This document shows positions 12,691 to 33,177 of a DNA stretch of 64,000 nt, in pieces. The notes under the pieces are model-generated. The model made no database searches. It saw only the letters and a program-made list of their open reading frames with translations, and was not told where the DNA came from. The DNA is from an uncultured Mycoplasmatota bacterium (GTDB lineage Bacteria; Bacillota_I; Bacilli_A; RF39; UBA660), in the NCBI GenBank assembly GCA_900547775.1, contig URHW01000002.1, positions 13,041 to 77,040 of the forward strand, read 5' to 3'. Every line of letters starts with the position of its first letter. Position 1 is the first letter of the stretch. Both the position numbers and the translations under genes were made by a program.

Positions 12691-12727
12691 TTTTTCTTTA
12701 GTATAATTAAACTTGAAGGAGAGTATT

Positions 12728-14881
12728 ATGATCAAATTAAAAGATGTATCCAAGTATTATTATAATAAGGGTCTTATAACTTCAGGTATTACTAAGATTA
12801 ATGCTGAGTTTAATATAGGTGAGTTTATAGTAATTACTGGTGAGAGTGGTAGTGGTAAGTCAACTTTACTTAATGTTATATCGGGGCTAGATACTTATGA
12901 AGACGGTGAGATGTATATTGATGGCAAGGAAACTAGTCATTATGGAGATGAAGACTTCGAGGAGTATCGTAAGGAATATATTAGTAATATCTTTCAAAAT
13001 TTTAATTTAGTTGGAAGTTATACTGTATATCAAAATATTGAACTAGTTATGCTTATTAATGGATATACTAAAAAGGAAGCTAGACCTAAGATATTAAAGC
13101 TTATTAATGAGGTAGAACTTACTAGGTATAAGAATACAAGAGTGTCTAAACTATCTGGTGGGCAGAAACAGAGAGTTGCTATTGCTAGAGCACTTGCTAA
13201 GAATACACCAATTATTATTGCGGATGAGCCAACTGGTAATTTAGATAAAAGGGCTGCTGAAAGTGTACTTAAAACGCTTGCTCTTACTGCTAAAGATAAA
13301 TTAGTTATTGTTGTAACTCATAACTATGAACAGGTTGAAAAGTATGCGACAAGAAAAATAACAATGTTTGATGGAAAAATTTTAGAAGATAAGATTATTA
13401 CTAAGACAGATGAAGTGAAAACAGATGGTAATTTGGAAAGTAAGAAAATGAAACCATTATCTAAACTTAGGCTAGGTGTTAGAAATACGTTTAATATTGT
13501 TCCTAAATTCTTATTACTTCTTGCTGTGTTCTTGTTTATGTTTGCAGCTATTACTACTGAGATGGCTGGTCTTAGAGAAAATAAGTATGAGGAAGAACGT
13601 GTTGGTTATAATTCATATTTACAGAATAAGGACACAAGTAGAATTATAATTAATAAGAGTGATAAATCACCATTTACTGATGAGGATTATGAAAGAATCG
13701 AAGCACTAGGTAATATTTCCAGAATTCAGAAAGACGATTATTTGGAGGATTTAAGTGCTAGTTTATATTCGGATTATTATTATATAAGTGGTAGTGTTAT
13801 TAAAAGAACTAGTCAAAAACTTGATTTAGGTAGAAATATAGAGAAAGATAACGAAGTTGTTATCCAAATGAATAAAGAAAATAATACAATAGGTGATCCT
13901 GAAAAAATTCTTAATAAGGAGTTTATGTATAATTATCAAGATAATACTACTAAGTTAAAGGTTGTTGGGATTATCTTTAATGATGATTTGGATTACGAGT
14001 CTATTATAGAAGTATCTGATAATATGATTAATGAGTTTATTTTAAATTATGTTATTAGTCGTACTACACAAACTTTAACTGTTAATGGTGCGGATACTTA
14101 TTGTAATTTATTTTATATTGATAGTGTTAATGATAGTTCTATTTATGTTAATGAAAATTTAAATAATAATAGTTATCCTATTAAGATGGTCAGTTTATCT
14201 TTAAGTAATACGTATGTTAATAAAGTGTTTGATTTGAAGGTAGAACATGTGTTAAATAAGTATAATTCTAAAAGGTTAACTGGTTATTCCTATGAAGAAA
14301 ATACTTGTTATTTAAGTAAAAATTTAATTAGAAATACTTTAATAAGTGATAAGTATCAAACTAGTGTATTTGTTAAAGATGAAGTTAAGATAAATGATAC
14401 GATAAACGATTTAATGAATTTAGGATATAGTACTTATGCTGTTAAAGATATGCTAATTAATGAAAGTGCGACAATGACGTATATTTATAATATTATTAAT
14501 TTAGTTTTGATGATTATTATACTTGTGGCGATGTTCTTTATTTCATATTTAATTATTAAATTAATTTTAAAATCACGTAAGAATTATTATACAATTATTA
14601 GAATACTTGGTGGTAGTAAGAAAAATTGTAAGAGTATCTTAAAGATAGAGTTATATACTATTTTAAATATAGCATTCATTATTATTACTTTCCTTGTATA
14701 TATGATAGTTAATGGCATGATAGATATTTCTTTAAGAAGTAGTTTAAAATTATTAAATATAAAAGATTATGTTCTAATTTATATTTTGATATTTGCACTA
14801 ACTTATTTAATAAGTGTTCGTTTTGGTAGATTTATCTTTAAAGAAAGTGCGATTAAGACTTATAACGAGGAGGAAGAATAA
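12728..14881 (+). CDS. Fused ABC transporter: N-terminal ATPase + C-terminal FtsX/MacB-type permease
   Basis: Walker A GESGSGKST, signature LSGGQKQR, Walker B IIIADEPT; then TM, about 330-aa extracytoplasmic domain and 3 C-terminal TMs. ATG 12728 preferred over TTG 12713 (RBS AAGGAGAG). Confidence 0.85.
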   Translation: MIKLKDVSKYYYNKGLITSGITKINAEFNIGEFIVITGESGSGKSTLLNVISGLDTYEDGEMYIDGKETSHYGDEDFEEYRKEYISNIFQNFNLVGSYTVYQNIELVMLINGYTKKEARPKILKLINEVELTRYKNTRVSKLSGGQKQRVAIARALAKNTPIIIADEPTGNLDKRAAESVLKTLALTAKDKLVIVVTHNYEQVEKYATRKITMFDGKILEDKIITKTDEVKTDGNLESKKMKPLSKLRLGVRNTFNIVPKFLLLLAVFLFMFAAITTEMAGLRENKYEEERVGYNSYLQNKDTSRIIINKSDKSPFTDEDYERIEALGNISRIQKDDYLEDLSASLYSDYYYISGSVIKRTSQKLDLGRNIEKDNEVVIQMNKENNTIGDPEKILNKEFMYNYQDNTTKLKVVGIIFNDDLDYESIIEVSDNMINEFILNYVISRTTQTLTVNGADTYCNLFYIDSVNDSSIYVNENLNNNSYPIKMVSLSLSNTYVNKVFDLKVEHVLNKYNSKRLTGYSYEENTCYLSKNLIRNTLISDKYQTSVFVKDEVKINDTINDLMNLGYSTYAVKDMLINESATMTYIYNIINLVLMIIILVAMFFISYLIIKLILKSRKNYYTIIRILGGSKKNCKSILKIELYTILNIAFIIITFLVYMIVNGMIDISLRSSLKLLNIKDYVLIYILIFALTYLISVRFGRFIFKESAIKTYNEEEE

Positions 14882-17274
14882 TGATAAGGCTAGAAAAAGT
14901 AAATAAATATTACAATAAGGGTAAGAAAAATCAAATCCACGTTATAGATAATACTAGTTTAGAATTAGGGGAGAAAGGTTTAGTTGCTCTTTTAGGGCCA
15001 TCTGGATGTGGTAAAACAACTCTTTTGAATGTTATTGGTGGTTTAGATAAAATTAAAAAGGGAAAAATTTATGTAAATGGTCAGAAGATAAGTACAAGAA
15101 GTTCTTATAAGGTAGATAAGATACGTAATTTAAATATTGGATATATTTTTCAAGATTATAAGTTAATAGATAATTTGTCTGTATATGATAATGTTGCGAT
15201 TGTCTTAAAGATGATTGGTATTAAGGATAAAAATGAGATTAAAAAGAGAGTTGAATATATTTTAAATAGTCTTAATATTTATCGTTTTAAATCAAGACCA
15301 GCATCAATGCTTTCTGGTGGGCAAAGACAGAGAGTTGGAATTGCTAGAGCATTAGTAAAGGATCCAGATATTATTTTAGCAGATGAACCAACTGGTAATT
15401 TGGATTCTAAGAATTCTTTAGAGATTATGAATATTATTAAAGCAATTTCTAAAAATAGATTAGTTATTTTAGTTACACATGAGACGGAACTTGCACATTT
15501 CTATGCTGATCGTATTATTGAGATTGAAGATGGCAAGATTGAGAAAGATTATACTAATGATAATAAGAATGGTTTAGATTATCGTATTGAAAATAACATT
15601 TATTTAAAAGATTTAAAGCATCAAGAAGTTAATGATAAAAATTTAAAATTACAAATTTATGAAAATAAAGAAACTAATTTAAATATTACTTTAGTTGTTC
15701 AAAATGGTAATATTTATATAAAGAATGAAGGACCAGAAAAAGTAGAAGTTATTGGTACGGATTCAAATATTGAACTTATTGATGATCATTATAAGACAAT
15801 TGCTAAAGAGGATGCTGAAAAATATAATTTTGATTTTCAAAATATTATTAGTAAAGATTTTAAGAAGAGGTATTCTAGTATTTTTAATCCGATAACGTTT
15901 ATAAAAAGTGGCTTTAAAAAGATTATTAATTATAAACCACTTAAGAAGTTTTTACTTCTTGGGTATATGGCGGCAGCTATGTTTATCTTATTTAGTGTAA
16001 GCAGAATTGCAGCAACTTTAGTAGTAAAAGATAAAGATTTTATTAAGTACAATGATACATATATTCAAATTAGTACTAATAAGTTAAATGTTGCAGATTA
16101 TAATAAGGTAATCAATATAGATGATATTAATTATGCTATGCCAGGTGATTCTTTAGTTAGTCTACCTTTAGTGTATAATAATTTACTTCAAACTACTGGT
16201 GTAAAAGAATATGTTATGGGTTCTCTTGCTAGTGTTAAATTACTTAAAAATGAAGATATATTATATGGTATGATGCCAGTAAATAAGAATGAGATAGCAA
16301 TAAGTAAGATTGTTGCTGAAAAAGTTTTAAATAATGGTTATGCTAAGGAAGCAGGTATTAATACTATTAATGGATTTGTTGGTAAGATTATTAAGTTAGA
16401 TTATTCTAGTGATATGATAGTAACCGGTATAGTGGATACGTCTAATCCTTCAGTTTATGCTTTTGAAGAAGAGTTTACTAATATCTTATATAATAATGCT
16501 TTAAATGAGGATAAAGCTCTTGAACTTTCTAATATGGGAAGTGTAGAGTATACTTTAAAGGAAGGTAAGAATCCAGAAAATGTTTACGAGATTATAGTTC
16601 CTTATAGTCAAAGATATGCTTATCCATTAAATGAAAAAGTAGATGAGAAAATTAATGATAAGAAATTAAAAGTTGTTGGTTATTATTTATCTAGTAAGAC
16701 AAGTAAGTATATAACTAATGAAGAGACGATGAAAATGCAACTTATTAATAATTCTAGAAGTATTACAATTAGTTCTAATGATAAGGAAACTGTAATAGAA
16801 GAGTTAAAAAATAGAGAAATAAGTGCAAGAGATACTTATGAAATAGCAAGAAATGAATATGTTAGGGATAATGAGAGTGCGACGAATGCAATTTTAATAT
16901 TTTCAGCAGTTATTATAGTAATATCTTTAATTGAGGTATTCTTAATGATAAGATCATCATTCTTATCTAGAATTAGAGAAATTGGTATTTATAGAGCAAT
17001 TGGTGTTAAAAAGAAAGATATTTATAAGATGTTCTTAGGTGAGATTTTAGCAATATCATTTACTGCGTCTTTAGGTGGTATTATCTTAATGACTTATGTT
17101 TTATATAATATTACTCAGATTAAATTTTTAACAGATTTCTGTGTTCTTAATCCATTTACTATTGGTATTTCAGTTATTATTTGTTTTGGATTTAATATAA
17201 TTGTTGGACTTATTCCAGTAGCAAATACCATGCGTAAAAGACCGGCAGAGATTTTATCGAGAAAAGACATTTAG
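14881..17274 (+). CDS. Second fused ABC ATPase-FtsX/MacB-type permease
   Basis: [28 protein letters not shown]; C-terminal FtsX-type TM bundle; start overlaps upstream stop (TAATG). Confidence 0.85.
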
Positions 17275-17337: not shown

Positions 17338-17940
17338 ATGAAAAAAACTATTATAGGTATTTTGGTTGGTATATTATTATGCTTTGGTGTTTTTGGAGGA
17401 TTATATTTTGCTAACGTGATTTCGTTAAATAAGCATAATGAAAATTTGCCGAATAACAATGCAAATACTGAAAAAGAAACTTCAACTGTAAGATATAGCA
17501 ATTATTTAAAAAACAGAAAAAATGGGCTTAAAAAATTTTTTAGTTCATCTATGCCTAATGATCTACTTGAAAATTCCGGAAGATATACTGAAAAGGGAAC
17601 TAGTTTCTTATATGAAAAATCTTTTAGTGCTACTATTACGCCTGAATTTAAGCTAGTATTTGATGTTGACGGGCTTGAGAAGTATAGTGATTTTGTGGTT
17701 GATGAAGGTGTTATTGATTTATTTTTGGTTTATGCTGGGAATGGCGGATTTCAGTACTTTTATTATTTGAAAGATGATGGCTCTTTAAAGAGTTTTTGTG
17801 TAGATTGTGTATGGGACGATGAGTTGAAAATTAAAAATGAAAATATAAAAAATGTGGTTTCTATTGGACAAGTTTCTGATGAGTCATCATATGATGCTCT
17901 TGCAACTGATATCGATGGAAATGTCTATGTAATGCGATAA
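17338..17940 (+). CDS. Membrane-anchored hypothetical protein
   Basis: 200 aa, N-terminal TM (IIGILVGILLCFGVFGGLYF), RBS AGAGG; no motif recognised. Confidence 0.6.
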   Translation: MKKTIIGILVGILLCFGVFGGLYFANVISLNKHNENLPNNNANTEKETSTVRYSNYLKNRKNGLKKFFSSSMPNDLLENSGRYTEKGTSFLYEKSFSATITPEFKLVFDVDGLEKYSDFVVDEGVIDLFLVYAGNGGFQYFYYLKDDGSLKSFCVDCVWDDELKIKNENIKNVVSIGQVSDESSYDALATDIDGNVYVMR

Positions 17941-17974: not shown

Positions 17975-18946
17975 ATGAAACATATTATGCCAGTAAAAGA
18001 TGATACAGATCCTATACTTAAAGCATATTTCAAAGTTGAAGAAGAAGTATTTCCTAGTAAAGTAGAAGAACTTTATATTAAACTTGCTAATTTAGTAAGT
18101 GATTATTTTGAGTATTATGGTATGCTTAATAAAAAACAAACTGATTATGATGCTAGTTTTAATATAATTACTAGTTATGGTTCGAAAATGATGACTTTAA
18201 AAGCTAAAATATTTGTTATAGAAGAGCAAATTAGAAGTATTGTTTCTGGACAGATGAGCAGTAGTGATGTTAATCTTTTACATAAGTTATCATCACAACT
18301 TTATCCATTAAAACGCAGTTTAGAGACAATGCAGAGACAAGATGATAATAATAGAAAAATAGTAAGTTCAAAGAATGATGAGATAAGTTCTGTTCATAGT
18401 TTACTTATGAGTATAATAGATAGTATTCGGGATATTTTAAAAGAGATTATTAGTTTGGATATAAATGGAGTTAGAAGATTAGATAGAATAAAAGTAACTA
18501 ATAAACATGAAAATGAGATAAGTGAAATTTTTAAATTTAGTAAAGATTATGGTGATATTTTTATTTCTTATTTACATTCTAGTGTAGATGCTAGAATTGC
18601 GGCTTTTAATATGATTGAAGCTATGGCAGATAAGATTATTTCTTTATATAATCATAATGTTTTAGGTGAAGGCTTTAGTATTGAAGAGACTGATAGGTAT
18701 AAGGTTGCTGATAATATTATTACTTCTGCTTCTTTGGATAATCTTATTAATGGTAGGGATGTTAATGATATCGAAAAGTTGCAGTCTGAAGATATTCCTA
18801 TTTTAAATGAAAGTATAAAGTTCTTAACTACTGGGTTAATTAATCCACAGCTTATTGAAAGGTATAAGACAGAAGTTGTTAGTTATAATAATAGAATGCT
18901 TTTAAAATCATTAGAAAATGGTGCTCTTAGAAGTTATTATATTTAA
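17975..18946 (+). CDS. Hypothetical protein, predicted all-helical/coiled-coil
   Basis: 323 aa, long ORF with typical codon usage; no motif recognised. Confidence 0.6.
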   Translation: MKHIMPVKDDTDPILKAYFKVEEEVFPSKVEELYIKLANLVSDYFEYYGMLNKKQTDYDASFNIITSYGSKMMTLKAKIFVIEEQIRSIVSGQMSSSDVNLLHKLSSQLYPLKRSLETMQRQDDNNRKIVSSKNDEISSVHSLLMSIIDSIRDILKEIISLDINGVRRLDRIKVTNKHENEISEIFKFSKDYGDIFISYLHSSVDARIAAFNMIEAMADKIISLYNHNVLGEGFSIEETDRYKVADNIITSASLDNLINGRDVNDIEKLQSEDIPILNESIKFLTTGLINPQLIERYKTEVVSYNNRMLLKSLENGALRSYYI

Positions 18947-18952
18947 AATTAA

Positions 18953-18978
18953 GGGAAATATCTAGATTTCCTTTTTTT
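18953..18978 (+). terminator. Rho-independent terminator
   Basis: GGAAAT(18954-18959)-ATCTAG-ATTTCC(18966-18971) followed by T7. Confidence 0.7.
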
Positions 18979-18982
18979 AGTG

Positions 18983-18991
18983 TGATATACT
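18983..18991 (+). promoter_or_regulatory. Candidate extended -10 promoter (TGaTATACT) for the HerA-like operon
   Basis: TG-n-TATACT 28 nt upstream of ATG 19019. Confidence 0.4.
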
Positions 18992-19018
18992 AATTTTATA
19001 GTAAAGAGGTTGGATAAA

Positions 19019-20779
19019 ATGTTTGGAAAGATAAAGTATATTAGTGATAATACTGCGGTTGTTGAAATTAATAAAGATGGTAATCTTGTTAGTAATTTAA
19101 TGAATTTACATGTTGTATTTGAATCTAATGGTGATAAACTTTTGGGTGAAGTTAAGAATGTTGATGAAAACTCTGTAAAGATAGAGTTATTAGGTGAGTT
19201 TGTTGGTACTCGTTTTATTGCAGGTACTATTAAGAAACCTACTTTAACAAGTACTCTTAGAGTAATTAATGAAGAAGAACTTGATATTATAATGGGTAAG
19301 GCTGATGAAAACTCATTATATATTGGTAAGAGTCCGATTTACAAAGATAGAAGTATTTATGCAAATATTAATGATTTATTTTCAAACCATTTAGCAATAT
19401 TTGGTAACTCTGGTTCAGGTAAATCTTGTTCAGTTTCAAGGATAGTACAAAATATATTTTTAAATCAAAACTTCTTAGCGCAAAATGCAAACCTTTTTAT
19501 TTTTGATGCTTATGGTGAGTATAAGAATGCTTTTAGAGATATAAATAAAATTAATCCAGCATATCAATATAAGTTTTTAACGACTAATCCAACAGAAGAA
19601 ACGGATATGTTATTTCAGTTACCTGTTTTCTTATTTACTAATGATGATGTAGCGCTTTTGCTTAATGCAGATAATCATGCACAGCTTACAATTATTGAAC
19701 GTATGATGAAACTCGCTAAATTATTTAGTCGTAATGATGCAGTTACTGAGAAACTTAAAAATCACTTAATTGCTAAAGCTATTCAGTCAGTATTATTTAG
19801 TAATCAAAATGCTTCTGGTAAGAAAAATGATATTTTTACAATTATTTCATCTTGTCAAACACCTGCATTTAATATGAATACGGAGATTCAAGGTATTGGT
19901 TATACAAGAAGATTTAGTGAGTGCTTTAAAATTGATAGCAAGGGCGAGTTTGGTGAAAGTGTTCTTATTAATGAATATATTGCTAAAAATCTTAATGAAG
20001 AGTTAGAAAGTACTATTGAGGTTCCTAGTCAGGCTTTCTTTACATTAAGGGATATGGAGAAGGCTTTAGAGTTTACTTTAATTGGTGAAGGGTTCTTAAA
20101 TAATAGATTAATGCAAGATTCAGCAATTATTTTAAAGGTTAGATTACACTCTATTATTAATAGTCGTAATGCTTTGTATTTTGACATTAAGCAGTATATT
20201 ACTTTAGAACAGTATATATCTAGTTTAATCGTATTAAATCATAGACGTAGTCAAATTATTAATATTAATTTAGAAGATGTTGATGATAATTTAGCGAAGG
20301 TTATTGTTAAGATTGTTAGTAAGATGATATTTGATTTTTCTAAGTCACGCAAGATTAGAGCATCTATTCCATTTCATTTAATTATAGAAGAAGCACATAG
20401 ATATGTAGTAGCAGATAATGATAAGTTCCTTCTTGGTTATAATATATTTGAACGTATTGCTAAAGAAGGCCGTAAGTATGGCGTACTTATTGATTTAATT
20501 AGTCAAAGACCTGTAGATATTTCAGAAACTGTTGTAGCCCAGATGAGTAATTTCTTAGTACTTAAAATGACACATCCAAAAGATTTAGAATATATTGAAA
20601 AGATGCTTCCAAATGTTTCAAGTGATATTATTGAAAAACTTAATTCTTTGCAGTCTGGTACGTTAGTATCATTTGGTAATGCCTTTAAGATACCATTACT
20701 TATTAAGATGGATTTACCGAACCCATTACCATACTCTAGTAACTGTGATGTTATTGCTAGATGGAAAGGAAATAACTAA
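19019..20779 (+). CDS. HerA/FtsK-type (DUF87-like) hexameric ATPase homologue
   Basis: N-terminal HAS-barrel-like segment (GKIKYISDNTAVVEI...LLGEVKNVDENSVKIELLGEF); Walker A FGNSGSGKS; Walker B HLIIEEAHRY; EGRKYGVLIDLISQRP. ATG 19019 with RBS AAAGAGG preferred over TTG 19010. Confidence 0.75.
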   Translation: MFGKIKYISDNTAVVEINKDGNLVSNLMNLHVVFESNGDKLLGEVKNVDENSVKIELLGEFVGTRFIAGTIKKPTLTSTLRVINEEELDIIMGKADENSLYIGKSPIYKDRSIYANINDLFSNHLAIFGNSGSGKSCSVSRIVQNIFLNQNFLAQNANLFIFDAYGEYKNAFRDINKINPAYQYKFLTTNPTEETDMLFQLPVFLFTNDDVALLLNADNHAQLTIIERMMKLAKLFSRNDAVTEKLKNHLIAKAIQSVLFSNQNASGKKNDIFTIISSCQTPAFNMNTEIQGIGYTRRFSECFKIDSKGEFGESVLINEYIAKNLNEELESTIEVPSQAFFTLRDMEKALEFTLIGEGFLNNRLMQDSAIILKVRLHSIINSRNALYFDIKQYITLEQYISSLIVLNHRRSQIININLEDVDDNLAKVIVKIVSKMIFDFSKSRKIRASIPFHLIIEEAHRYVVADNDKFLLGYNIFERIAKEGRKYGVLIDLISQRPVDISETVVAQMSNFLVLKMTHPKDLEYIEKMLPNVSSDIIEKLNSLQSGTLVSFGNAFKIPLLIKMDLPNPLPYSSNCDVIARWKGNN

Positions 20780-20796
20780 TTATAGTTAAAGTGATT

Positions 20797-23004
20797 ATGA
20801 AGAAAGAAATGAAAAGGGAAGTAGAGGATGCATTAGAGATATTAAATGGCTTAATTAGTAATTATAATGATTTCTTTATTAATGAAAGTAAGCCGATTCC
20901 AGATGAGATAAAAGATACTTATTTAAATGTTGCTAAAGCGTTTATGAACGATCTTAAAGAAGAAGATTTAAAGAAATACCAAAAGTCTTCTTCTTATGAA
21001 GATTTAGTAAGTAAATATAATACTCTTAAAAGTAATGTTAGTGAAGCAGAATCTAGAATAAAAGAGCATAATGATAAAGTAATAATGCTTGATAAAGAAA
21101 ATAAAATTAAAGATATGGGTGAGATTAGTAGTGATGCATCTATTCAAGATGATATTATTACTGTGCCTAGTGAAGAACTTCTTTTGGTAAGTAGTGCTGA
21201 TGATAAACTTAAATATGTTACTGATAAGATTAAGTATGTAACTTCTTTAGAAGGCACTTTAGAAGAAGAAATATTAATTCTTACTTATACTAATAAGGAT
21301 TCTAAGAGTTATATGAATGCTCTTAAAGATTATCCTAATGTTGGGGTTATGCCAATAAATAAGTTTATATATTCATTAAGTGATATTAAAACAACAGAGG
21401 TGTCACTTAATAAAGTGATAGATGAAGAATTATCTAATAACTTAAAGGATGATAATTATACTAGAAATTTAGTTTTATATTTATTACATTATCATCAAAA
21501 TACATATTCTTCTTTAGCGTTTAGTGATAAAAATTCTTATAATGATTATCTCGATAGTTTGAATTTAAAGACACTTAAGGGTGAAACAGTAAGTAGTCCA
21601 GCGATTTTAAATATTACTGATTTTCTTACCGAGAATAAAGTTAATTATAAGATTAAGAATATTTTAGAAGATAATGAGATATTTAATGTAATTAGTTTAG
21701 ATAATGATATAGATATTATTTATTTTGAGTTAGATGAAAAAGGTGAGAGGCCAGTATTTTTTAAAGATAGTTATATAGAGACAGTTGATAAGATTAGAAG
21801 CGATTATGAAAATAGTCATACTAAGTTAGTTGAGTGTTATGCTTACGAAAAGAAAAATGGTTCTATTATTAATAATTTATATACTAAGTTATATGATGCT
21901 GGTGTTAAGTTTGCTTTAGAGGATGCTAGTGTTCTTTTAGAATTATTAGAAAAGCAAAATCCTAACTTAATGCCTTCATTAAAAGAAACTATGTTAATTA
22001 CGATTAAGGCTTTAATAGAAGAGAATAAACCGTTAGAAGAATTTAACATGACATTAAGTGAACGTAAATTTGCGGAGCTTTTAAAACCTATATATGATAA
22101 GTATAATATTTCAAGTGATTTTAGTAATGAGACTTATAAAATAATAGATAATCTTAAAGATAATTTAAATTATAAATTTATAATTTTAGATAACTTTGAA
22201 GAAATAACTACTTCTAAGTTTAAGTTAATTCAAAAGATTAAAAATATAACGGGTGCTAATTTATTATTTTTAGGTGATGATTGGCAAAGCATTTATCTAA
22301 ATAGTGGGACTAATCCTAAGTATATTAAAAATATTAAGAAGTATTATCCTGATATTAAAATTTCTCTTCTTCCATATAAACCAGTTAATTTTAAACTTTA
22401 TGAAATTGCTAAGAAAGTTATTAGTATGACAAATAATTATTATGATAAGAAGGTAGAAGCAAGTGATAGTTTTTCTTCTATAGGTATTATACGAGTTAAA
22501 AATAAAGATGATATTAAAGATAAATTAATAAATATAGTTAAGAGTTTACCTGGTAGCATTACTATTGCAGGTAGATATTCTAGCGATAATGTTGATGTTC
22601 CTAATACAAAGTTTATTTTAATAAATGACACTAAGATATATAATTCAGATTATACTTTTATAATAAACACTGAAAAAGGATTATGTGGTTATCCAAATGA
22701 GCTAATCAATAATGTTATTTTAAATAAAATAATAGAGATAGAGCCAGCAATATATAATGAATACCGCACTTTAGCAAATATTATTAGAAATACTAATAAA
22801 AGAGTATATTTAGTTGTAACAGAAGAAAATACATCTAAAGTATTTAGAGATATTATTGATACTTATAAGGATGATATTTTAGCAGGGAAAAATGAATGTC
22901 CAATATGCGGGAGTAGTCTTATTATAAAACCAGCTGGTGATAAAGAAGAGCTTGAGTGTTCTAATGAAAAATGTAGTTATCATAGTGATATAAACGAGAA
23001 TTAA
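20797..23004 (+). CDS. Helicase IV/UvrD-like protein with eroded ATPase motifs, N-terminal coiled coil and C-terminal zinc ribbon
   Basis: Colinear with helicase IV: ILILTYTNKDSK (Ia), FIILDNFEE (II, DE to DN), LLFLGDDWQSIY (III), ITIAGRY, DYTFIINTEKGLCGYP, RTLANIIRNTNKRVYLV (VI). Walker A position reads SSADDKLK. CPICG...C..KC at the C-terminus. Start could be GTG 20791. Confidence 0.7.
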   Translation: MKKEMKREVEDALEILNGLISNYNDFFINESKPIPDEIKDTYLNVAKAFMNDLKEEDLKKYQKSSSYEDLVSKYNTLKSNVSEAESRIKEHNDKVIMLDKENKIKDMGEISSDASIQDDIITVPSEELLLVSSADDKLKYVTDKIKYVTSLEGTLEEEILILTYTNKDSKSYMNALKDYPNVGVMPINKFIYSLSDIKTTEVSLNKVIDEELSNNLKDDNYTRNLVLYLLHYHQNTYSSLAFSDKNSYNDYLDSLNLKTLKGETVSSPAILNITDFLTENKVNYKIKNILEDNEIFNVISLDNDIDIIYFELDEKGERPVFFKDSYIETVDKIRSDYENSHTKLVECYAYEKKNGSIINNLYTKLYDAGVKFALEDASVLLELLEKQNPNLMPSLKETMLITIKALIEENKPLEEFNMTLSERKFAELLKPIYDKYNISSDFSNETYKIIDNLKDNLNYKFIILDNFEEITTSKFKLIQKIKNITGANLLFLGDDWQSIYLNSGTNPKYIKNIKKYYPDIKISLLPYKPVNFKLYEIAKKVISMTNNYYDKKVEASDSFSSIGIIRVKNKDDIKDKLINIVKSLPGSITIAGRYSSDNVDVPNTKFILINDTKIYNSDYTFIINTEKGLCGYPNELINNVILNKIIEIEPAIYNEYRTLANIIRNTNKRVYLVVTEENTSKVFRDIIDTYKDDILAGKNECPICGSSLIIKPAGDKEELECSNEKCSYHSDINEN

Positions 23005-23049: not shown

Positions 23050-23263
23050 TTAGTTAAAAAAGTTTTGATTAGGACATGGCATTATTCTTAATCTTATTAA
23101 GCGAAGTTATGATGGTGAAAGATAACTTAAGAAAGAGTATTTGTTACTACCTATGAACTGGTCTTGAAAAAGAACCCCGGTGATGAGCCGTTACTTAAAT
23201 AAAGGTAAAAATGGATGGTACCGTGTTTATGCACTCCTGCTAATTGTGGCAGGAGTTTTTTTT
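23050..23263 (+). promoter_or_regulatory. T-box riboswitch leader, threonine specifier (ACU/ACC)
   Basis: Distal-loop GGTGAAA at 23114-23120; ACT ACC at 23146-23151; T-box sequence AATGGATGGTACCGTG about 23210-23225; terminator CTCCTGC(23234-23240)/GCAGGAG(23249-23255)+T8. Confidence 0.85.
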
Positions 23264-26220: not shown

Positions 26221-26335
26221 TATTCTGGTTATCTACATTTTTAAATAAAAAATAAAAGATATGGCTTATATTATAAAAAAAGTTTTGTCATATCTTTTTT
26301 TAAACAAAAAATCTAAAGATAAGGAGGTTGATAAA

Positions 26336-27613
26336 ATGCTAAAAAATGCTATAGCATATATTTTAAGAAAAAGAAATAGAACAATTATAGTATTTATTAT
26401 TTTAACATTAATTCTCTCTTGTTTGTATTCATGTTTGAATATAACAAAATCAACAAATAATTTAGAAAAAAACTTATACAAGATTTCAAATACATCATTA
26501 TCAATAACTAAAAATAATGGTGATACTTTTGAAACTAATCAGTTTAAAGAATTAGATAATATAAAAGAAATAAAAGAAATTATCACTAAGTATGATGGAC
26601 TTGCTAGAACTGCAAACATCAAAGCTGTAGATGGAACACAATTAGTAGAACGAGATGATTTATCAGATGAGTTCAAAAATATGCTTTCAGTAGAAGCTAC
26701 TAATAATAGTGAAAAGGATAATTTATTTAATAGTGGTATTTTTACTATTATAAAAGGCAGACATATTAATAATAATGATAGAGGAAAAATTCTTATTCAC
26801 AAGGAACTTGCTGAAAAAAATAACCTAAAACTCAACGATAAAATCAAACTTCAATTAATTGATTTTAATAACAGTGAAAAGAAAAAGGAATATGAGTTTG
26901 AGATAATTGGAATTTTTTCAGGTAAAAAACAAGAAAGATATACTGGCTTATCATCAGATTTTAGTGAAAACATGGTGTTTATTGATTATGAATCAAGTCA
27001 AAAAGCATTAAATAAAACTGAAAATAACAAAATTGTTAATAAACTTGCAATATTTTCAGACAGTTCAGAAAATACAAAGGAAGCACTAAATAAAATTAAA
27101 AAAATTAAAATTGATTGGTCACAATTCAATATTTCAAGTGATAACCATGTATTCGAAGAAATACTAGAGTCTATAGATGGAATAAAACATATTATTGAAA
27201 TCATGACATATTCAATTATGATAGGTGGAATAACAGTTTTGTCATTAATATTGATACTATGGTTAAGAGAAAGAATATATGAAATAGGAATATTATTATC
27301 TATTGGTATAAGTAAAATAAAAATAATAATTCAATTTATACTTGAATTATTATTTATATCACTACCTTCTTTGGTATTATCATTATTTATAGGAAATGTA
27401 ATATTAAATATTATAGTCGGTGGATTTATGAATTCTGATGATTCAACAATAATGGTTGATAGCTTACTTAAAAACAATAATTTTATTTCAAATCTTATAA
27501 CTTTCCTACAAAGTTACGGAATATTAATTGGAATTATAGTTCTATCAGTTATTATTGCAAGTTTAATGATATTAATTAAAAAACCAAAAGAAATATTGTC
27601 AAAAATAAGTTAG
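26336..27613 (+). CDS. FtsX/MacB-type ABC permease
   Basis: N-terminal TM, about 250-aa extracytoplasmic domain, 3 C-terminal TMs; ATG 26336 with RBS AAGGAGG preferred over 26261. Confidence 0.8.
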   Translation: MLKNAIAYILRKRNRTIIVFIILTLILSCLYSCLNITKSTNNLEKNLYKISNTSLSITKNNGDTFETNQFKELDNIKEIKEIITKYDGLARTANIKAVDGTQLVERDDLSDEFKNMLSVEATNNSEKDNLFNSGIFTIIKGRHINNNDRGKILIHKELAEKNNLKLNDKIKLQLIDFNNSEKKKEYEFEIIGIFSGKKQERYTGLSSDFSENMVFIDYESSQKALNKTENNKIVNKLAIFSDSSENTKEALNKIKKIKIDWSQFNISSDNHVFEEILESIDGIKHIIEIMTYSIMIGGITVLSLILILWLRERIYEIGILLSIGISKIKIIIQFILELLFISLPSLVLSLFIGNVILNIIVGGFMNSDDSTIMVDSLLKNNNFISNLITFLQSYGILIGIIVLSVIIASLMILIKKPKEILSKIS

Positions 27614-27623
27614 GAGATTAAAA

Positions 27624-28268
27624 ATGGATATATTAGAAATAAAAAATGTAACATATAATTATTCAAATTCAAATGAGAAAGTATTATCTTCAGTAAATCA
27701 AAAATTTGAAATTGGAAATTTTTATGCAATAATAGGAAAATCAGGTGCAGGAAAGTCAACATTACTTTCTCTATTAGCAGGTTTAGATAAACCACAAAAA
27801 GGTCAAATCTTATTTAAAGGAAATGATATAGAGAAAGATGGCTATAGTAATCATAGAAAAAATAACATATCGTTAGTTTTTCAAAACTATAATTTAATTG
27901 ATTATTTAACGCCTTTAGAAAATGTTAGATTAGTAAATAAAAATGCATCTGAAACAATCTTATTTGAATTAGGGCTTGATAAAAGTCAAATAAATAGAAA
28001 TGTAATGAAATTATCAGGAGGGCAACAACAAAGAGTGGCGTTTGCAAGAGCTTTAGTTTCAGAAGCTCCAATAATTTTAGCAGATGAACCTACTGGAAAC
28101 TTAGATGTTGATACTGCTGGTGAAATAATTGAAATACTTAAAAAGCTAGCAAAAGAAAGAAATAAGTGTGTAATCGTAGTAACACATAGTAAAGAAGTTG
28201 CAAATTCTGCTGACATTATTTTAGAATTAAGAGATAGAAAACTTAAGAAAATAAATAAAAATAATTAG
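27624..28268 (+). CDS. ABC transporter ATP-binding protein
   Basis: [29 protein letters not shown]-loop VTHS. Confidence 0.9.
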   Translation: MDILEIKNVTYNYSNSNEKVLSSVNQKFEIGNFYAIIGKSGAGKSTLLSLLAGLDKPQKGQILFKGNDIEKDGYSNHRKNNISLVFQNYNLIDYLTPLENVRLVNKNASETILFELGLDKSQINRNVMKLSGGQQQRVAFARALVSEAPIILADEPTGNLDVDTAGEIIEILKKLAKERNKCVIVVTHSKEVANSADIILELRDRKLKKINKNN

Positions 28269-28279
28269 GAGGTACAATA

Positions 28280-29656
28280 ATGATTAAAAATGCATTTGCA
28301 TATGTAACTAGAAAAAGTCTAAAATCAATAATTATATTGTTAGTTATAACAGCTATGTCAACGCTTTGTCTTATTAGTTTATCAATTAAAGACGCTACGA
28401 ACAGAGCTTCAAAAGAAACTTTCGGAAATATAACAAATAGTTTCTCTATGGAAATAAACCGAAGAGTTAATTTTGGAACACCAAGAGGTGGTGGCAATAT
28501 AAAAGGACAAGATATTAAAAAAATTGCTGAATCCAAAGATATTGATTCATATGTAAAAAGAATTAATAGTGTTGCTGATTTAGTAGATAATGATATAATA
28601 GAAACTCAAAAAACTCTTTCAGGTCAATCACCTGAAAGAGCAAAAAAATTTAAAAGAGCAGTTATGTTAACAGGCGTTAATGATTCATCAAAAGAAAATA
28701 AGTTTGTCTCAGGAGCTTACAAATTATCTAGTGGTGAACACTTAAATGAAAATGATAAAAACAAGATTTTAATGCATAAAGACTTAGCAGAAAAAAATAA
28801 TTTAAAAATTGGAGATAAAATAAAAATAAAATCTAATTTATTTGATGCTGATAATGAAAAAAGAGCAAATGAAAAAGTAGAAGTTGAGATAAAAGGTCTT
28901 TTTGATGGTCATAATGAAGGTGGCGTTACTGTAGCCCAAGAACTTTACGAAAATACTTTGATAACTGATTTAGATACGGCTGCAAAAGTATATGGAAATA
29001 CAGAGGATACTGCAGTATATCAAGATGCCACATTTTTTGTAAAAGGTGATAAAAATTTAGATAAGGTTATTAAAAATATTGAAAAACTCGATATAGATTG
29101 GAAACAATATAATTTGATTAAAAGTTCAAATAATTACCCAGCACTACAACAGTCTATATCAGGTATATATAAAATAGCTAACAAATTATTTGCAGGATCA
29201 TTATTATTTGCAGGCGTTACAGTTTCATTACTATTGTTTTTATGGATGAATGCTAGAAAAAAAGAAATTGCAATTTTGCTTTCATTAGGAATTTCAAAAG
29301 CCAAATTATTCGGACAATTTGTTATTGAAATAGTATTTGTATCAATTCCAGCATTTATAGGATCATACTTTCTAGCTGTTTATACAGCAAGTATGATTGG
29401 AAATAACATATTAAGTAAAGTCACTGGTACAATAGCAAAACAGATTGCTAAACAGTCAGCATCTAGCCAACTTGGAGGTGGAGCTGAAGTAGATGGATTT
29501 AATAAAACACTAACAAGTTTAGAAATTAATATATCTCCAAAATTAATGATATATGTAGTTTTATTTATGTCAATAGTTCTTATAATTTCTTTACTAATAT
29601 CTTCATCAAGCAATTTAAAGAAAAGTCCAAAAGAATTATTAATTGATACAAAATAG
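28280..29656 (+). CDS. FtsX/MacB-type ABC permease (second)
   Basis: Same architecture as 26336-27613; RBS AGGAGG. Confidence 0.8.
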   Translation: MIKNAFAYVTRKSLKSIIILLVITAMSTLCLISLSIKDATNRASKETFGNITNSFSMEINRRVNFGTPRGGGNIKGQDIKKIAESKDIDSYVKRINSVADLVDNDIIETQKTLSGQSPERAKKFKRAVMLTGVNDSSKENKFVSGAYKLSSGEHLNENDKNKILMHKDLAEKNNLKIGDKIKIKSNLFDADNEKRANEKVEVEIKGLFDGHNEGGVTVAQELYENTLITDLDTAAKVYGNTEDTAVYQDATFFVKGDKNLDKVIKNIEKLDIDWKQYNLIKSSNNYPALQQSISGIYKIANKLFAGSLLFAGVTVSLLLFLWMNARKKEIAILLSLGISKAKLFGQFVIEIVFVSIPAFIGSYFLAVYTASMIGNNILSKVTGTIAKQIAKQSASSQLGGGAEVDGFNKTLTSLEINISPKLMIYVVLFMSIVLIISLLISSSSNLKKSPKELLIDTK

Positions 29657-30075: not shown

Positions 30076-31041
30076 TTAGTCTTTATTAATTAAGAATGTT
30101 GCTAGTTTTTCTGGGTCGTCATTATTCATAACTATACTATATATTAAATCAACTACTGGCATTTTAATTTTTTTACGGTTAAGTAGGGTATAGATACTTT
30201 TTAGGGTATAATATCCTTCAACTGTAGTGGTTTCTAAATATTTTTTAGCTCCATCAAAGTCTTTCTTACCTAAAAGAATACCATAAGAATAGTTTCTACT
30301 TTTAACACTTGTACAAGTAAGAAGTAAATCTCCAATACCAGCAAAACTAAGTATTGTTTTCTTTCTGCCACCTAAAACTTTTATAAGCCATTTAATATCA
30401 TGCATTGATTCAACTATTAAGAAACTTCTAGTTGATTCATTATAACCAAGTCCGGTAATAATACCAGATGCTACTGCAATAACGTTTTTAATTGAACCGC
30501 AAAGTTCAACGCCTATCATATCAGAACTCTTTCTTAATTTAACACTATTACTTGATAGAGTTTCAATTATTAATTTAGAAGTTCTTCTATTAGATGCTGC
30601 TAAACTAAAGCCAATTGGTTCGCCACTTGCTAAATCTACGGCAAAGCTTGGGCCTGATATAACTGCATAATTGCTATTATTAGAGTTCTTCTTAAATACT
30701 TCATGAACAAATTCACAACTTCCTTGTTCAATGCCTTTACTACCAATACAATATACTGCATCTTTTTTAGCATATTTATTAATTTTTTTTGTTACATCAC
30801 CAATATATTTAGCACTTGTCATTAGATAAATAACATCAGCATCTATTACAGCATCTTTGATACTATCAGTAAATTTCATTTCCGTAGGTGTTTTAATACC
30901 AGGAATAATTTCTTTACCACTTTGTATTTCATTTAATTTATCTTTACTACTGCACCATACTGTTACATCATTACCATTTTTAAGCAAATTAACAGCGATA
31001 GCAAAGCCAAATGCCCCTGAACCTATAACTACACATCTCAT
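30076..31041 (-). CDS. gpsA: NAD(P)H-dependent glycerol-3-phosphate dehydrogenase
   Basis: VIGSGAFG, GPSFA, GSIKNVIAVASGI, GIGDLLLTCTS..SRN motifs. Confidence 0.9.
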   Translation of the reverse strand: MRCVVIGSGAFGFAIAVNLLKNGNDVTVWCSSKDKLNEIQSGKEIIPGIKTPTEMKFTDSIKDAVIDADVIYLMTSAKYIGDVTKKINKYAKKDAVYCIGSKGIEQGSCEFVHEVFKKNSNNSNYAVISGPSFAVDLASGEPIGFSLAASNRRTSKLIIETLSSNSVKLRKSSDMIGVELCGSIKNVIAVASGIITGLGYNESTRSFLIVESMHDIKWLIKVLGGRKKTILSFAGIGDLLLTCTSVKSRNYSYGILLGKKDFDGAKKYLETTTVEGYYTLKSIYTLLNRKKIKMPVVDLIYSIVMNNDDPEKLATFLINKD

Positions 31042-32249
31042 TACTTTTTCATCTCCTCATTGACCTTATTTAGGCCATTTTCATATTTATTAAAGTGTGG
31101 ACTATAAAATTTTGTATTAACTAGATTATCTGGTAAGTATTGTTGTTTAACATAATATTTAGGATAGTCGTGTGGATATTTATATTGTGGACTATTTGTT
31201 CTAATATGGCTAGGAACTTTACCAGCACCACCTTTACGTACTACATTAATAGCTTTATCTAGTGCTATATGTGCAGTATTACTTTTAGGAGATAGAGCCA
31301 TTTCAGTTACAACAACACTTAATGGAATTCTTCCTTCTGGCATACCAAGTAGCTTGACAGCCTCAATTGCAGCATGCACTTTAGGCCCGATTCCTGGATT
31401 TGCTAGGCCAATATCTTCATAAGCAATAACGCTCATTCTTCTAAAAATGATATCAAGATCTCCCGCTTCTAAAAGGACTGCTAAATAGTATAGGGCAGCA
31501 TCTACATCACTACCACGTATGGATTTTTGAAAGGCACTAATTGTATCATAATAACCAGAATCATTTTTGTCAGCAAATAGGGGAACTTTACCATTAACAG
31601 AAGTTACAACTTCTTTAGTAACTTTTTTATCACTAGTACTATAATAACAAACTTCTAGAAGGTTTAGTGCACTTCTTAAATCACCATTTGAATAACTTGC
31701 TATAGCTTTAATTGTGTCATCATCTATTGTAATATCTTCTAGTTTTTGAATTCCTTTTTTAAGTCCTATAATTATATCATCGGTACTTAATGGAAGTAAT
31801 TCAAATATCTGACATCTACTGCGAATTGCTGGATTAATTGAGTGATATGGATTAGATGTTGTAAGACCAATAATAGTAATTAAACCACTCTCTAAATATG
31901 GAAGTAATATATCTTGTTTATCTTTATTCATTCTATGTATCTCATCTATAACTAAGATCATTGAGCCATTCATTTTAGCTTCTTCAATAACAATATCAAA
32001 ATCTTCCTTTTTGTTTACTACGGCATTAAGTGTTCTATAGGTCATATTAAGTTCATGAACTATGGCACTAGCAATACTCGTTTTACCTGTTCCAGGAGGT
32101 CCATATAAAATCACTGAAAAAAGAACCTTATTATGAATGAGATTGCTTATAACTTTACCATCACCAACAAGATGACTTTGCCCAATAACGTCGCTTAACT
32201 TTTCTGGTCTTAAAATATTTGCAAGTAGTTCCATAAGTTTTTCCTCCAA
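31041..32249 (-). CDS. rarA: Replication-associated recombination protein A (AAA+ ATPase)
   Basis: GQSHLVG, Walker A GPPGTGKTS, Walker B VIDEIHR, C-terminal MgsA domain (FQKSIRGSD.DAALYYL). Confidence 0.9.
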   Translation of the reverse strand: MEEKLMELLANILRPEKLSDVIGQSHLVGDGKVISNLIHNKVLFSVILYGPPGTGKTSIASAIVHELNMTYRTLNAVVNKKEDFDIVIEEAKMNGSMILVIDEIHRMNKDKQDILLPYLESGLITIIGLTTSNPYHSINPAIRSRCQIFELLPLSTDDIIIGLKKGIQKLEDITIDDDTIKAIASYSNGDLRSALNLLEVCYYSTSDKKVTKEVVTSVNGKVPLFADKNDSGYYDTISAFQKSIRGSDVDAALYYLAVLLEAGDLDIIFRRMSVIAYEDIGLANPGIGPKVHAAIEAVKLLGMPEGRIPLSVVVTEMALSPKSNTAHIALDKAINVVRKGGAGKVPSHIRTNSPQYKYPHDYPKYYVKQQYLPDNLVNTKFYSPHFNKYENGLNKVNEEMKK

Positions 32250-32313: not shown

Positions 32314-33177
32314 ATGAATGAAAATCTAGAAAACTATCGTAACTATTTAAAATATGAACGAGCCTATAGTGATAATACGGTAGGTGCTTATATGAACGAT
32401 CTAAATAAATATGAAGAGTTTTTAAAGAAAGATATTTTAGAATCGGATACTGAAGATTTAGAAAAGTATTTAAAATATATTAAAAACTTGGAAAGTACTA
32501 CTGTAGCTCATAAAATAACGTCGATTAAGTCATATTTTAATTATAATATTAAAAGAGGAATAACAAGTGTGAATCCGGCTGATAAGGTATCTAGACCTAA
32601 ACTTACTAAACACTTGCCAGAATATTTAACTGAGGAAGAAGTAGGTAAGTTATTAGATGTTGAGGTTAAATCACCTTATGATTATCGCAATAAGACTATT
32701 TTAGAACTTTTATATTCTTCTGGGATTAGAATTAGTGAATTAGTTAACATAAAAACTCCTAATTATGACAGTGAAGAATGTCTAATTAGAATTATGGGAA
32801 AAGGTAGTAAAGAAAGAATTGTTCCTCTAGGAGATTATGCTGTAAATATTATGAATGATTACATGAACAATTATAGACCATTAATTAATAAGAAACATAC
32901 GGATTATGTTTTTATAAATAACAGGGGAGATAAGATAAGTAGGCAGTTTATTTTTAAAGTTATAAAAAAAGAAGCACTAAAAAAAGGTATAAAGAAAGAC
33001 ATCTCTCCTCATACCTTACGACACACATTTGCAACTCATTTATTAAAAAATGGTGCGGACCTAAGAATTATTCAAGAACTTCTTGGTCATGAAAATATAA
33101 GTACCACTCAAATTTATACACATGTGACTAATAATAAATTAAAGAGTGACTATGAAACATATTTCCCTAAAGATTAA
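32314..33177 (+). CDS. xerD: Tyrosine recombinase, XerD/XerC family
   Basis: 287 aa; SGIRISEL, HTLRHTFATHLL..GADLR.IQELLGHE.ISTTQIYTH catalytic region; XerC versus XerD cannot be decided from sequence alone. Confidence 0.7.
   Translation: MNENLENYRNYLKYERAYSDNTVGAYMNDLNKYEEFLKKDILESDTEDLEKYLKYIKNLESTTVAHKITSIKSYFNYNIKRGITSVNPADKVSRPKLTKHLPEYLTEEEVGKLLDVEVKSPYDYRNKTILELLYSSGIRISELVNIKTPNYDSEECLIRIMGKGSKERIVPLGDYAVNIMNDYMNNYRPLINKKHTDYVFINNRGDKISRQFIFKVIKKEALKKGIKKDISPHTLRHTFATHLLKNGADLRIIQELLGHENISTTQIYTHVTNNKLKSDYETYFPKD

Follow-up and report, generated by a model that had tools for sequence, protein, structure and literature searches.

The window analyzed here is a stretch of 64,000 nucleotides (contig URHW01000002.1 of an uncultured Mycoplasmatota bacterium, GC content about 27%), which carries three consecutive genes on its forward strand. 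The central one, herA (19019–20779), encodes an intact HerA/FtsK-superfamily ATPase of 586 amino acids. It is preceded by orf323 (17975–18946), which encodes a lineage-specific coiled-coil orphan, and followed by helL (20797–23004), whose 735-amino acid product HelL appears to be a pseudo-helicase and pseudo-nuclease with a zinc ribbon. A first-pass annotation, made from the sequence alone, had proposed herA and helL as a novel defense or DNA-processing module; open reading frame (ORF) calling bears out its coordinates for the three genes, all of which are intact. Database copies start at the ATG codons 19019 (herA) and 20797 (helL)—leaving an intergenic gap of 17 nt—and alternative in-frame starts lie ahead of both genes (TTG 19010 and GTG 20791, respectively). 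Identical proteins carry the database labels "Clostridium sp. CAG:533" and "Clostridiaceae bacterium DBY43," and the closest relative in the genome collection is labeled "uncultured Bacilli bacterium."

The HerA, HelL, and orf323 proteins and their transcription

Profile hidden Markov models (HMMs) place the product of herA in the HerA family, as had been proposed. It matches Pfam DUF87/HerA (PF01935) at 1e-20 with 75 bits (cutoff 23) and eleven HerA models of PADLOC, the best being PDLC04102 at 2e-103 with 345 bits. These PADLOC models sit in a numbering block adjoining the SIR2 models; the HerA models of NCBIfam match at scores well under their equivalog cutoffs. Solved HerA structures are matched at e-42 to e-20—among them Sulfolobus HerA (4d2i) at 1e-32—and the best of these, at e-42 to e-36, are HerA or HerA-type "ATP-binding protein" chains. 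All motifs named in the annotation are present on the forward strand: a Walker A sequence, FGNSGSGKS (19400–19426), which is conserved across the clade, and, from sequence and alignment, a Walker B sequence, HLIIEEAH (20375–20398), and the region from EGRKYGV to ISQRP (20465–20512), which we take to be the arginine-finger and sensor segments, respectively. Among the relatives, these motifs are conserved but for single exceptions in two distant sequences. The Pfam HAS-barrel finds no match in HerA, and the N-terminus can be aligned over its full length with SIR2-associated HerAs, minus two insert segments. The nearest annotated relatives on plasmids, with 31% identity, are the HerA subunits of SIR2–HerA pairs in Lactobacillus, Enterococcus, and Listeria. 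Judged by its motifs, HerA would be an active hexameric DNA translocase of the HerA/FtsK type, and this forms part of the best explanation of the locus.

HelL is matched only faintly by existing profiles: Pfam UvrD-helicase reaches just 23 bits, NCBIfam helicase IV gives a partial match of 52 bits (cutoff 543), and PADLOC GajB matches weakly with at most 36 bits. Its distant relatives were retrieved from a search of 1.84 billion cluster representatives, and contigs were scanned for relatives of HelL and HerA. Among the representatives, HelL finds one 65%-identical cluster, after which—a few same-species fragments aside—identity falls to about 27%. The distant homologues comprise 800 to 1000 amino acids; all nine that were scanned against Pfam bear UvrD-helicase and UvrD_C, and seven bear Zn_ribbon_Top1. 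An alignment with eleven active homologues of about 25% identity, all bearing UvrD-helicase and UvrD_C and nine of them Zn_ribbon_Top1, confirms the colinearity with helicase IV/UvrD and the motif map drawn up before, with HelL being colinear over about 600 residues. The profile of this HelL-family alignment finds PcrA, UvrD, and Rep at e-51 to e-42, and AddA and RecB weakly. Since its best profile matches are PcrA/UvrD/Rep, an alternative assignment of HelL as a HelD-like RNA-polymerase factor finds no support.

The alignment locates the losses within the helicase core, all positions lying on the forward strand. At the former Walker A (LLLVSSADDKLKYV, 21178–21219), AGAGTGKTT of the active homologues reads VSSADDKLK in HelL; the lysine stays, the glycines and the threonine are gone, and the P-loop is destroyed. 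In the former motif II (FIILDNFEE, 22177–22203), VDEYQD has turned into LDNFEE, with DN in place of DE. Motif IV has changed from TTYRF to LPYKP, which removes its arginine, and motif V from HKSKGLQADY to NDTKIYNSDY. Motif VI is half-kept—EERRLxYVALTRAKKKV in the active homologues, NEYRTLANIIRNTNKRV in HelL—with one arginine staying, and the degraded motifs V/Va and VI together span 22618–22815 (LINDTKIYNSDYTFIINT ... YRTLANIIRNTNKRVYLV). Retained are motif Ia (ILILTYTNKDSK, 21271–21306), the GRY segment of the active relatives, and motif III (LLFLGDDWQSIY, 22261–22296), which reads GDDWQSIY in active homologues and HelL alike. Across the 14 sequences compared for motif III, GDDWQS.Y is invariant and the isoleucine nearly so. 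In UvrD and PcrA, motifs Ia and III are DNA-contacting elements.

The active relatives bear an additional insert in domain 1A, which—weakly but consistently—appears to be T7-endonuclease-I-like and corresponds to the PD-(D/E)xK-like module suggested for HelL. Its profile finds PDB entry 3cae at E 1.4e-3, with 3cae, 2pfj, and 1m0d spanning 1e-3 to 5e-3, and Pfam Phage_endo_I matches the insert in seven of 10 active members, under the gathering score. The lysine of ExK is missing even in these active relatives. In HelL, alignment and profile place the insert at 21574–21861 (+), and the catalytic acidic residues are gone: going from active relatives to HelL, the E, PD, and IE positions change from GE..IANFL to SPAILNITDFL, from PDFYLP to -NVISL, and from IYIEYFG to DIIYFEL. 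Because the ATPase motifs are lost and all three acidic positions of the insert are replaced, HelL is predicted to be a pseudo-helicase and a pseudo-nuclease at once. The loss of Walker A, the motif II glutamate, the motif IV arginine, and motif V—together with a score of 52 against a cutoff of 543 bits—likewise argues that HelL cannot be a working member of the helicase IV/UvrD family.

The two ends of HelL lie outside this eroded core. The C-terminal zinc ribbon that had been noted is present as four cysteines, CPICG-x15-C-x4-C (22897–22974 (+), amino acids 701–726), and is conserved in the genus; its only Pfam match in HelL is DNA_ligase_ZBD at E 0.011, with Zn_ribbon_Top1 being significant only in the homologues. 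The N-terminal coiled-coil region (amino acids 1–110, 20797–21126 (+)) is the best-conserved part, with a conservation of 0.84 to 0.93 and helices predicted at a local confidence (pLDDT) of 50 to 79. It is similar in the orthologue P0146 (30% identical) and is found in active relatives, too. A single-sequence AlphaFold2 (AF2) model of the whole of HelL is unusable, with a pLDDT of 39.

Catalytic erosion, which had been noted for Walker A, motif II, and motif VI, is confirmed and extends to sister lineages: SSADDKL and LDNFEE occur in all genus-level orthologues, and P0146 and the orthologue at metagenome locus L096 are eroded as well. The deep orthologues at loci L090 (1009–2775, 588 amino acids) and L096 (7765–9696, 643 amino acids) are 30% identical to HelL and start 3 nt past herA. 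They have further lost motif III, with GDDWQSIY turned into G(K/R)VEECIY, and the zinc ribbon. A partial erosion is also seen in P0157, a member of the otherwise active family with 837 amino acids, DDYQE for motif II, and GNDWQG for motif III, which suggests that the helicase-IV/zinc-ribbon family may have lost activity repeatedly. Three short or chimeric entries (P0246, P0163, and P0147), in which HelL pieces of 60 to 80 residues are joined to unrelated sequence, look like assembly chimeras rather than true fusions.

The upstream gene orf323 encodes, as proposed, an all-helical orphan. Searches against Pfam, PADLOC, NCBIfam, and PHROG give no family below E 0.01, the nearest being a match to Pfam Pkip-1 at E 0.017, under the cutoff. 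Database clusters of the protein number only 16, none below 65% identity; in addition, L096 bears an orthologue of 35% identity. Its AF2 model, calculated from a shallow multiple sequence alignment, packs helices 28–90 and 96–170 as an antiparallel coiled coil at a pLDDT of 65 to 90, the remainder being of low confidence. Foldseek finds nothing for this model in the PDB at E <0.05, just generic coiled coils. A diverged SIR2, DUF4297, or NurA is, hence, ruled out for orf323, given the all-helical coiled-coil fold and the absence of a significant profile match.

Between orf323 and herA, RNA folding gives a terminator-like AU-rich hairpin followed by a T-run (18951–18979 (+)), which had been described as a strong terminator at 18953–18978. 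This strength is overstated, as the hairpin reaches only −8.2 kcal/mol with z = −1.2 versus shuffled sequences and is not called in the terminator scan of the window; the hairpin itself, however, is kept in four lineages. It is followed by an extended −10 element read from the sequence (TGaTATACT, 18983–18991 (+)), presumably part of a promoter, and by the ribosome-binding site (RBS) AAAGAGG (19003–19009 (+)), which is identical across a five-lineage alignment. The 75 nt ahead of herA comprise this hairpin/T-run, TGTG(A/T)TATACT, and AAAGAGG, and are kept in the window, L005, L003, and L007. L096 keeps the −10 element and the RBS, too, such that TGTG(A/T)TATACT is found in five of five aligned lineages, in line with the separate promoter proposed for the pair. 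As the block is kept in L003 and L007 even behind a different upstream ORF, herA has its own regulatory block, and such a conserved promoter and RBS block is found ahead of herA only. The terminator scan calls nothing in the 17-nt gap between herA and helL or over most of herA; the only same-strand call in either gene, a weak match of 5 bp, falls within herA (20469–20482). It is likely that herA and helL are co-transcribed, and orf323 is probably a separate transcription unit.

Distribution and selection

On the HelL side, one genome per species was scanned with the HelL-family alignment, which returned 80 loci from Firmicutes, Bacteroidota, Chloroflexota, Proteobacteria, Patescibacteria, and several archaeal orders. 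Only one of these, L007 at 65% identity, bears a HelL of the eroded type, and active relatives of HelL are present on plasmids, too. In a Dehalococcoidia genome, a 1057-amino acid fusion of a serine recombinase (Resolvase, Recombinase, and zinc ribbon) with HerA (L064, 10437–13610) lies close to an active helicase-IV-like gene. Being such a recombinase fusion, it is ruled out as a genuine pairing of HerA with an active HelL relative.

On the HerA side, metagenomes were scanned with the HerA alignment, followed by ORF calling and phmmer. This yields a graded series of HerA relatives from 100% down to 40% identity. A herA flanked by HelL and orf323 is confined to loci with HerA at 92% identity or more (L091–L096, L106, L138, L001–L007, and L090), and L112 also bears both around herA, as far as its contig extends. 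Hence, herA is ancestral and its flanking genes came later: herA is an old core gene, passed on vertically as a single, stand-alone gene in a broad clade of gut Bacilli with small, low-GC genomes, and helL and orf323 are later additions to a variable slot in one genus-level lineage. Within this lineage, the HerA–HelL adjacency is unbroken in the window, L003, L005, L007, L090, and L096, with HelL down to 30% identity and the downstream neighbor changed. The expectation that the pair should co-occur beyond this genome, thus, stands for at least five distinct lineages. orf323 and HelL show exactly the same phyletic pattern and tempo.

In lineages without HelL, herA is preceded by gatCAB (with thiF–gpsA–rarA–xer downstream), by a pyrimidine-nucleoside phosphorylase (PyNP) gene at 18 loci, or by ftsY–ylxM. 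Downstream, sepF–divIVA is found at 14 loci, 10 of them with divIVA too, in lineages at 42 to 44% HerA identity; the gene directly after herA can elsewhere encode an SDR, a PP-loop ATPase, an AI-2E transporter, an Na/Pi cotransporter, a pilin-like protein, an HTH protein, a GT8 glycosyltransferase, or an orphan. Those recurrent neighbors that can be identified are housekeeping genes (PyNP, SepF, DivIVA, ThiF, GatB, and FtsY/YlxM). Across the HerA clade, no recurrent partner of the SIR2, DUF4297, or NurA type is seen beside herA, and phmmer with a plasmid SIR2 query finds nothing in 80 HerA-clade loci. The wider context—gatCAB, ABC transporters, thrS, thiF, rarA, xer, and dif—is a housekeeping position fixed in all lineages, and no integrase, transposase, or defense genes lie near the locus. 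The idea of a defense-island context is, thus, not borne out.

Selection was compared between the window and three sister lineages, in which housekeeping proteins are 94 to 98% identical, by the ratio of nonsynonymous to synonymous substitution rates (dN/dS). For herA and thrS alike, the amino acid identity is 97 to 98% and dN/dS 0.02 to 0.04; gatA/gatB follow with 94 to 95% and 0.04 to 0.08. The flanking genes are less constrained, with 67 to 78% and 0.15 to 0.28 for orf323 and 64 to 87% and 0.23 to 0.31 for helL, and both evolve about 10 times faster than herA. This tempo is also apparent in L090 and L096, where HerA is 92 to 94% identical, orf323 35%, and HelL 30%. The exact sequence of HerA is borne by 425 contigs, compared with 60 for thrS, 26 for HelL, and 19 for orf323; herA seems to be present throughout the species. 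Judged from the best-scoring database variants, HelL has at least four times the within-species polymorphism of HerA, and the 90% cluster of HelL holds more than 600 intact alleles.

Along HelL, dN/dS is 0.0 to 0.26 in the N-terminal coiled coil, 0.5 to 1.16 at the former P-loop, 0.09 to 0.2 around motifs II–III, and 0.04 to 0.2 near the C-terminus. The sliding analysis over HelL reveals no segment with clear positive selection, and only the dead P-loop linker nears 1. As dN/dS is low overall and about 1 over the former P-loop, HelL appears as a selected gene whose nucleotide-binding loop is free to drift.

Relation to described systems and possible roles

PADLOC places the pair in no described system, returning just generic HerA models and weak GajB matches, and no pairing of HerA with a UvrD-like or inactive superfamily 1 (SF1) helicase was found in the literature. 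Hence, the view that the pair lies outside described systems holds: HerA is a further member of a known family, and its pairing with a dead SF1A helicase/nuclease is absent from the PADLOC models and the searched literature. The closest annotated comparison by HerA sequence is with the SIR2–HerA and DUF4297–HerA anti-phage systems (Gao_19/"Nezha"; HerA-DUF), which likewise have a hexameric HerA ATPase as the conserved subunit and an adjoining partner gene. However, the locus of the window bears neither a SIR2 nor a DUF4297 effector, as orf323 and HelL have no such Pfam or PADLOC match. The partner in those systems lies upstream and overlaps, whereas helL lies downstream and its product is catalytically dead by its motifs. 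Furthermore, herA of the window is a vertically inherited core gene that lies among housekeeping genes and, in most of its clade, stands by itself; it is not patchy or island-borne. The NurA–HerA pairs for DNA end resection in archaea and Deinococcus/Thermus are alike in that a HerA motor adjoins a putative DNA-handling partner in a housekeeping rather than mobile setting, but Pfam gives no NurA match for orf323 or HelL, no nuclease activity is predicted in the partner, and no mre11/rad50 lies nearby.

From the helicase side, HelL shares motifs Ia and III, GRY, part of motif VI, and the C-terminal ribbon with helicase IV (HelD) and UvrD–PcrA–Rep enzymes with a Top1-type ribbon, and differs from them by lacking Walker A, the motif II glutamate, the motif IV arginine, and motif V. 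RecC of RecBCD and AddB of AddAB offer a tentative functional analogy, supported here by co-location and the selection regime, in which an SF1A-helicase fold has lost catalysis and is retained as a scanning or scaffold subunit. RecC also carries a dead PD-(D/E)xK-like domain. HelL is no orthologue of these subunits—its nearest kin are helicase-IV/PcrA/UvrD-like—and the putative motor would be a HerA ring instead of an SF1 helicase. A conceptual precedent for HerA with a dead helicase might be seen in the "HerA/FtsK capture" systems, in which HerA/FtsK ATPases are coupled to an inactive D5-type SF3 helicase and which were proposed as defense (PMC10853773). These are alike in the genetic coupling of a HerA/FtsK ATPase to a helicase module of lost activity. 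These systems are, however, mobile and differently fused or linked, and they comprise recombinases and active restriction-endonuclease domains (PMC10853773); HelL is of the SF1 type, and the locus of the window bears no signs of mobility, restriction-endonuclease domains, or recombinases.

Our tentatively preferred reading, to which we give somewhat less than an even chance, takes HelL for an exapted pseudo-helicase that binds DNA independently of ATP, is expressed from the herA promoter, and possibly serves as an adaptor of HerA. On this reading, helL would descend from a mobile UvrD/helicase-IV-like SF1 family with a T7-endonuclease-I-like insert and a Top1-type ribbon. One genus-level lineage would have gained orf323 upstream and helL downstream of the ancestral herA, with helL being read from the herA promoter. 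HelL would then have lost NTP binding and hydrolysis as well as the acidic triad of the nuclease, and purifying selection would have preserved its coiled coil at the N-terminus, motifs Ia and III, and domain 2A in its C-terminal part, along with the zinc ribbon in the present lineage. Co-expressed with HerA, such an ATP-independent DNA-binding pseudoenzyme might recognize a DNA structure—an end, a fork, or a junction—and present it to the HerA motor or modulate the latter, in a role resembling that of RecC for RecB, AddB for AddA, or NurA for archaeal HerA. Both DNA binding by HelL and its physical or functional contact with HerA are, hereby, inferred. The adaptor role is favored because the adjacency is unbroken despite the divergence, co-transcription is probable, both proteins are DNA-related, and orf323 and HelL share their phyletic pattern.

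Several observations weigh against this adaptor role. HelL and orf323 are missing in every lineage with HerA at 83% identity or less, and most lineages bear HerA without HelL. Apart from the recombinase–HerA fusion, no HerA-like ORF lies within 7 kb in any of the 79 active HelL-relative loci, which, together with the occurrence on plasmids, points to a HelL ancestor that was stand-alone, horizontally mobile, and unlinked to HerA. In other lineages, the slot after herA holds unrelated genes at gaps often below 25 nt or with overlaps; as these are often packed equally closely and the compact genomes normally show such spacing, the herA–helL adjacency is weak evidence of a partnership. The 10 HerA substitutions diagnostic of HelL-bearing lineages are scattered, and no burst or patch of change—that is, no HerA-side signature—marks the branch on which helL was gained. 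Also, the erosion of HelL continues, and the losses of motif III and the zinc ribbon in L090 and L096 would fit weak constraint as well as an adaptor role.

Much of this would equally be expected if HerA and HelL were incidental neighbors, which we consider possible but would sooner doubt than accept. Here, helL would be a domesticated mobile remnant in a variable slot that rides the herA promoter and has a residual function independent of HerA, and orf323 would be a second, unrelated insertion. The variable slots before and after herA, with unrelated genes at similarly tight spacing, fit this explanation, as do a HerA unchanged by the acquisition of helL, active HelL relatives that stand alone across phyla, archaea, and plasmids, and a HelL that evolves about 10 times faster than HerA under ongoing motif loss. 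What it leaves unaccounted for is an adjacency that survives to 30% HelL identity while other neighbors changed, the shared pattern and tempo of orf323 and HelL, and the DNA-related nature of both HerA and HelL. That helL is instead a decaying gene en route to a pseudogene, its function gone, is very improbable. Stepwise motif loss across lineages and a fast-evolving, low-GC gene would suit it, but every lineage and more than 600 alleles of a 27% GC genome retain an open frame of 588 to 735 codons, dN/dS is 0.23 to 0.31 overall and below 0.2 in several domains, and GDDWQSIY is invariant within the genus. A dN/dS below 1 and the integrity of the ORF, thus, largely refute pure decay.

A defense role is a minority reading, which we regard as unlikely. 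It would take the locus as a conflict or anti-phage system, perhaps a domesticated one of the "HerA capture" type, in which a SIR2–HerA-related motor works with orf323 and HelL as fast-evolving sensors or adaptors for invader DNA or proteins. The nearest annotated HerA relatives, at 31% identity, indeed belong to SIR2–HerA pairs of Firmicute plasmids, and the best PADLOC model adjoins the SIR2 block; the flanking genes are fast and the motor constant, polymorphism within the species is at least fourfold higher in HelL than in HerA, and HerA/FtsK systems with inactive helicases were proposed as defense (PMC10853773). However, the locus bears no active effector, as HelL has lost both its nuclease and its ATPase site and orf323 forms a coiled coil, and it is a core locus at a fixed housekeeping position devoid of nearby integrase, transposase, or defense genes. 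Moreover, herA is constrained like an aminoacyl-tRNA synthetase and older than its flanking genes, dN/dS nowhere clearly exceeds 1 save in the dead P-loop linker, and PADLOC holds no model for orf323 and only weak GajB matches for HelL. Of the module put forward in the first-pass annotation, there remains a real pair outside described systems for which DNA processing is plausible; an ancestral stand-alone core herA in a housekeeping context and the lack of an active effector domain speak against a self-contained unit and against the defense part of the proposal. A more far-reaching variant, which we hold to be improbable, would have HerA of the clade as a housekeeping translocase tied to the replication terminus, which in the CAG:533-like genus recruited the RecC-like HelL, and perhaps orf323, as DNA-structure adaptors—an undescribed machine for terminus, dimer, or break processing.

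If HelL does work with HerA, a HerA ring motor would for the first time be seen assisted by a dead SF1 helicase/nuclease, and a mobile helicase–nuclease would turn out to have become a pseudoenzyme adaptor in parallel to RecC/AddB. The reach of this finding is limited, as the pair does not occur beyond one genus-level lineage. Aside from the pair, a HerA with strong matches to defense HMMs can be a core housekeeping gene, and PADLOC-style HerA matches alone are, hence, no proof of immunity. A further lead is that, in a large uncultured clade of gut Bacilli, a stand-alone herA is maintained under selection matching that on an aminoacyl-tRNA synthetase, in many lineages a few kb from xer and dif.

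Terminus surroundings and neighboring genes

The replication terminus appears to lie within the window. At about 29.5 to 30 kb, the GC skew switches and the genes turn from plus to minus orientation, with the cumulative skew peaking near 29.5 kb. A dif-like site (ACTTCCTATAATGTATGTTATGTTAACT, 34431–34458 (−)) matches the dif site of B. subtilis at 24 of 28 positions, and a Xer-like tyrosine recombinase gene (32314–33177) lies beside it and rarA/mgsA (31041–32249 (−)). Near-identical dif-like sites are found 4 to 4.7 kb downstream of herA in L105, L108, L109, and L141; 847 kb of related loci hold no other dif-like match with five or fewer mismatches. The synteny herA–thiF–(gpsA)–rarA–xer–ZIP–dif is kept in lineages with HerA 58 to 100% identical (metagenome loci L097–L141), and the position of herA near xer and dif could be simple inherited synteny. 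As a proximity to dif in a member of the FtsK–HerA superfamily, it is nevertheless a lead that may outweigh the original pairing claim.

The three genes are preceded by gatCAB, two ABC/FtsX transporter genes, and a 200-amino acid orphan, and followed by thrS, which has a promoter-like site of its own and is preceded by a T-box leader. This leader (23056–23241 (+)) scores 69.6 bits at E 3e-15 and does not reach the Rfam gathering score of 93; at the gathering threshold, Rfam gives no match in the window, such that the T-box appears only at the E-value threshold. Its terminator hairpin lies at 23233–23256. The flanks of herA are insertion-prone, as the 200-amino acid orphan (17338–17940) is missing in L003 and L005 and an extra 347-amino acid orphan ORF of no family lies between orf323 and herA in L003 (11073–12116), with a size-matched gap at the equivalent place of L007 (3895–5184). 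A paralogue of orf323 is ruled out for this ORF, to which it shows no similarity. Two sets of genes for ABC ATPases and FtsX/MacB-type permeases lie in the window, at 12713–17274 and 26261–29656, the former of which ranges from 83% to 99% identity among the sister lineages, compared with 94 to 98% for the housekeeping genes there.

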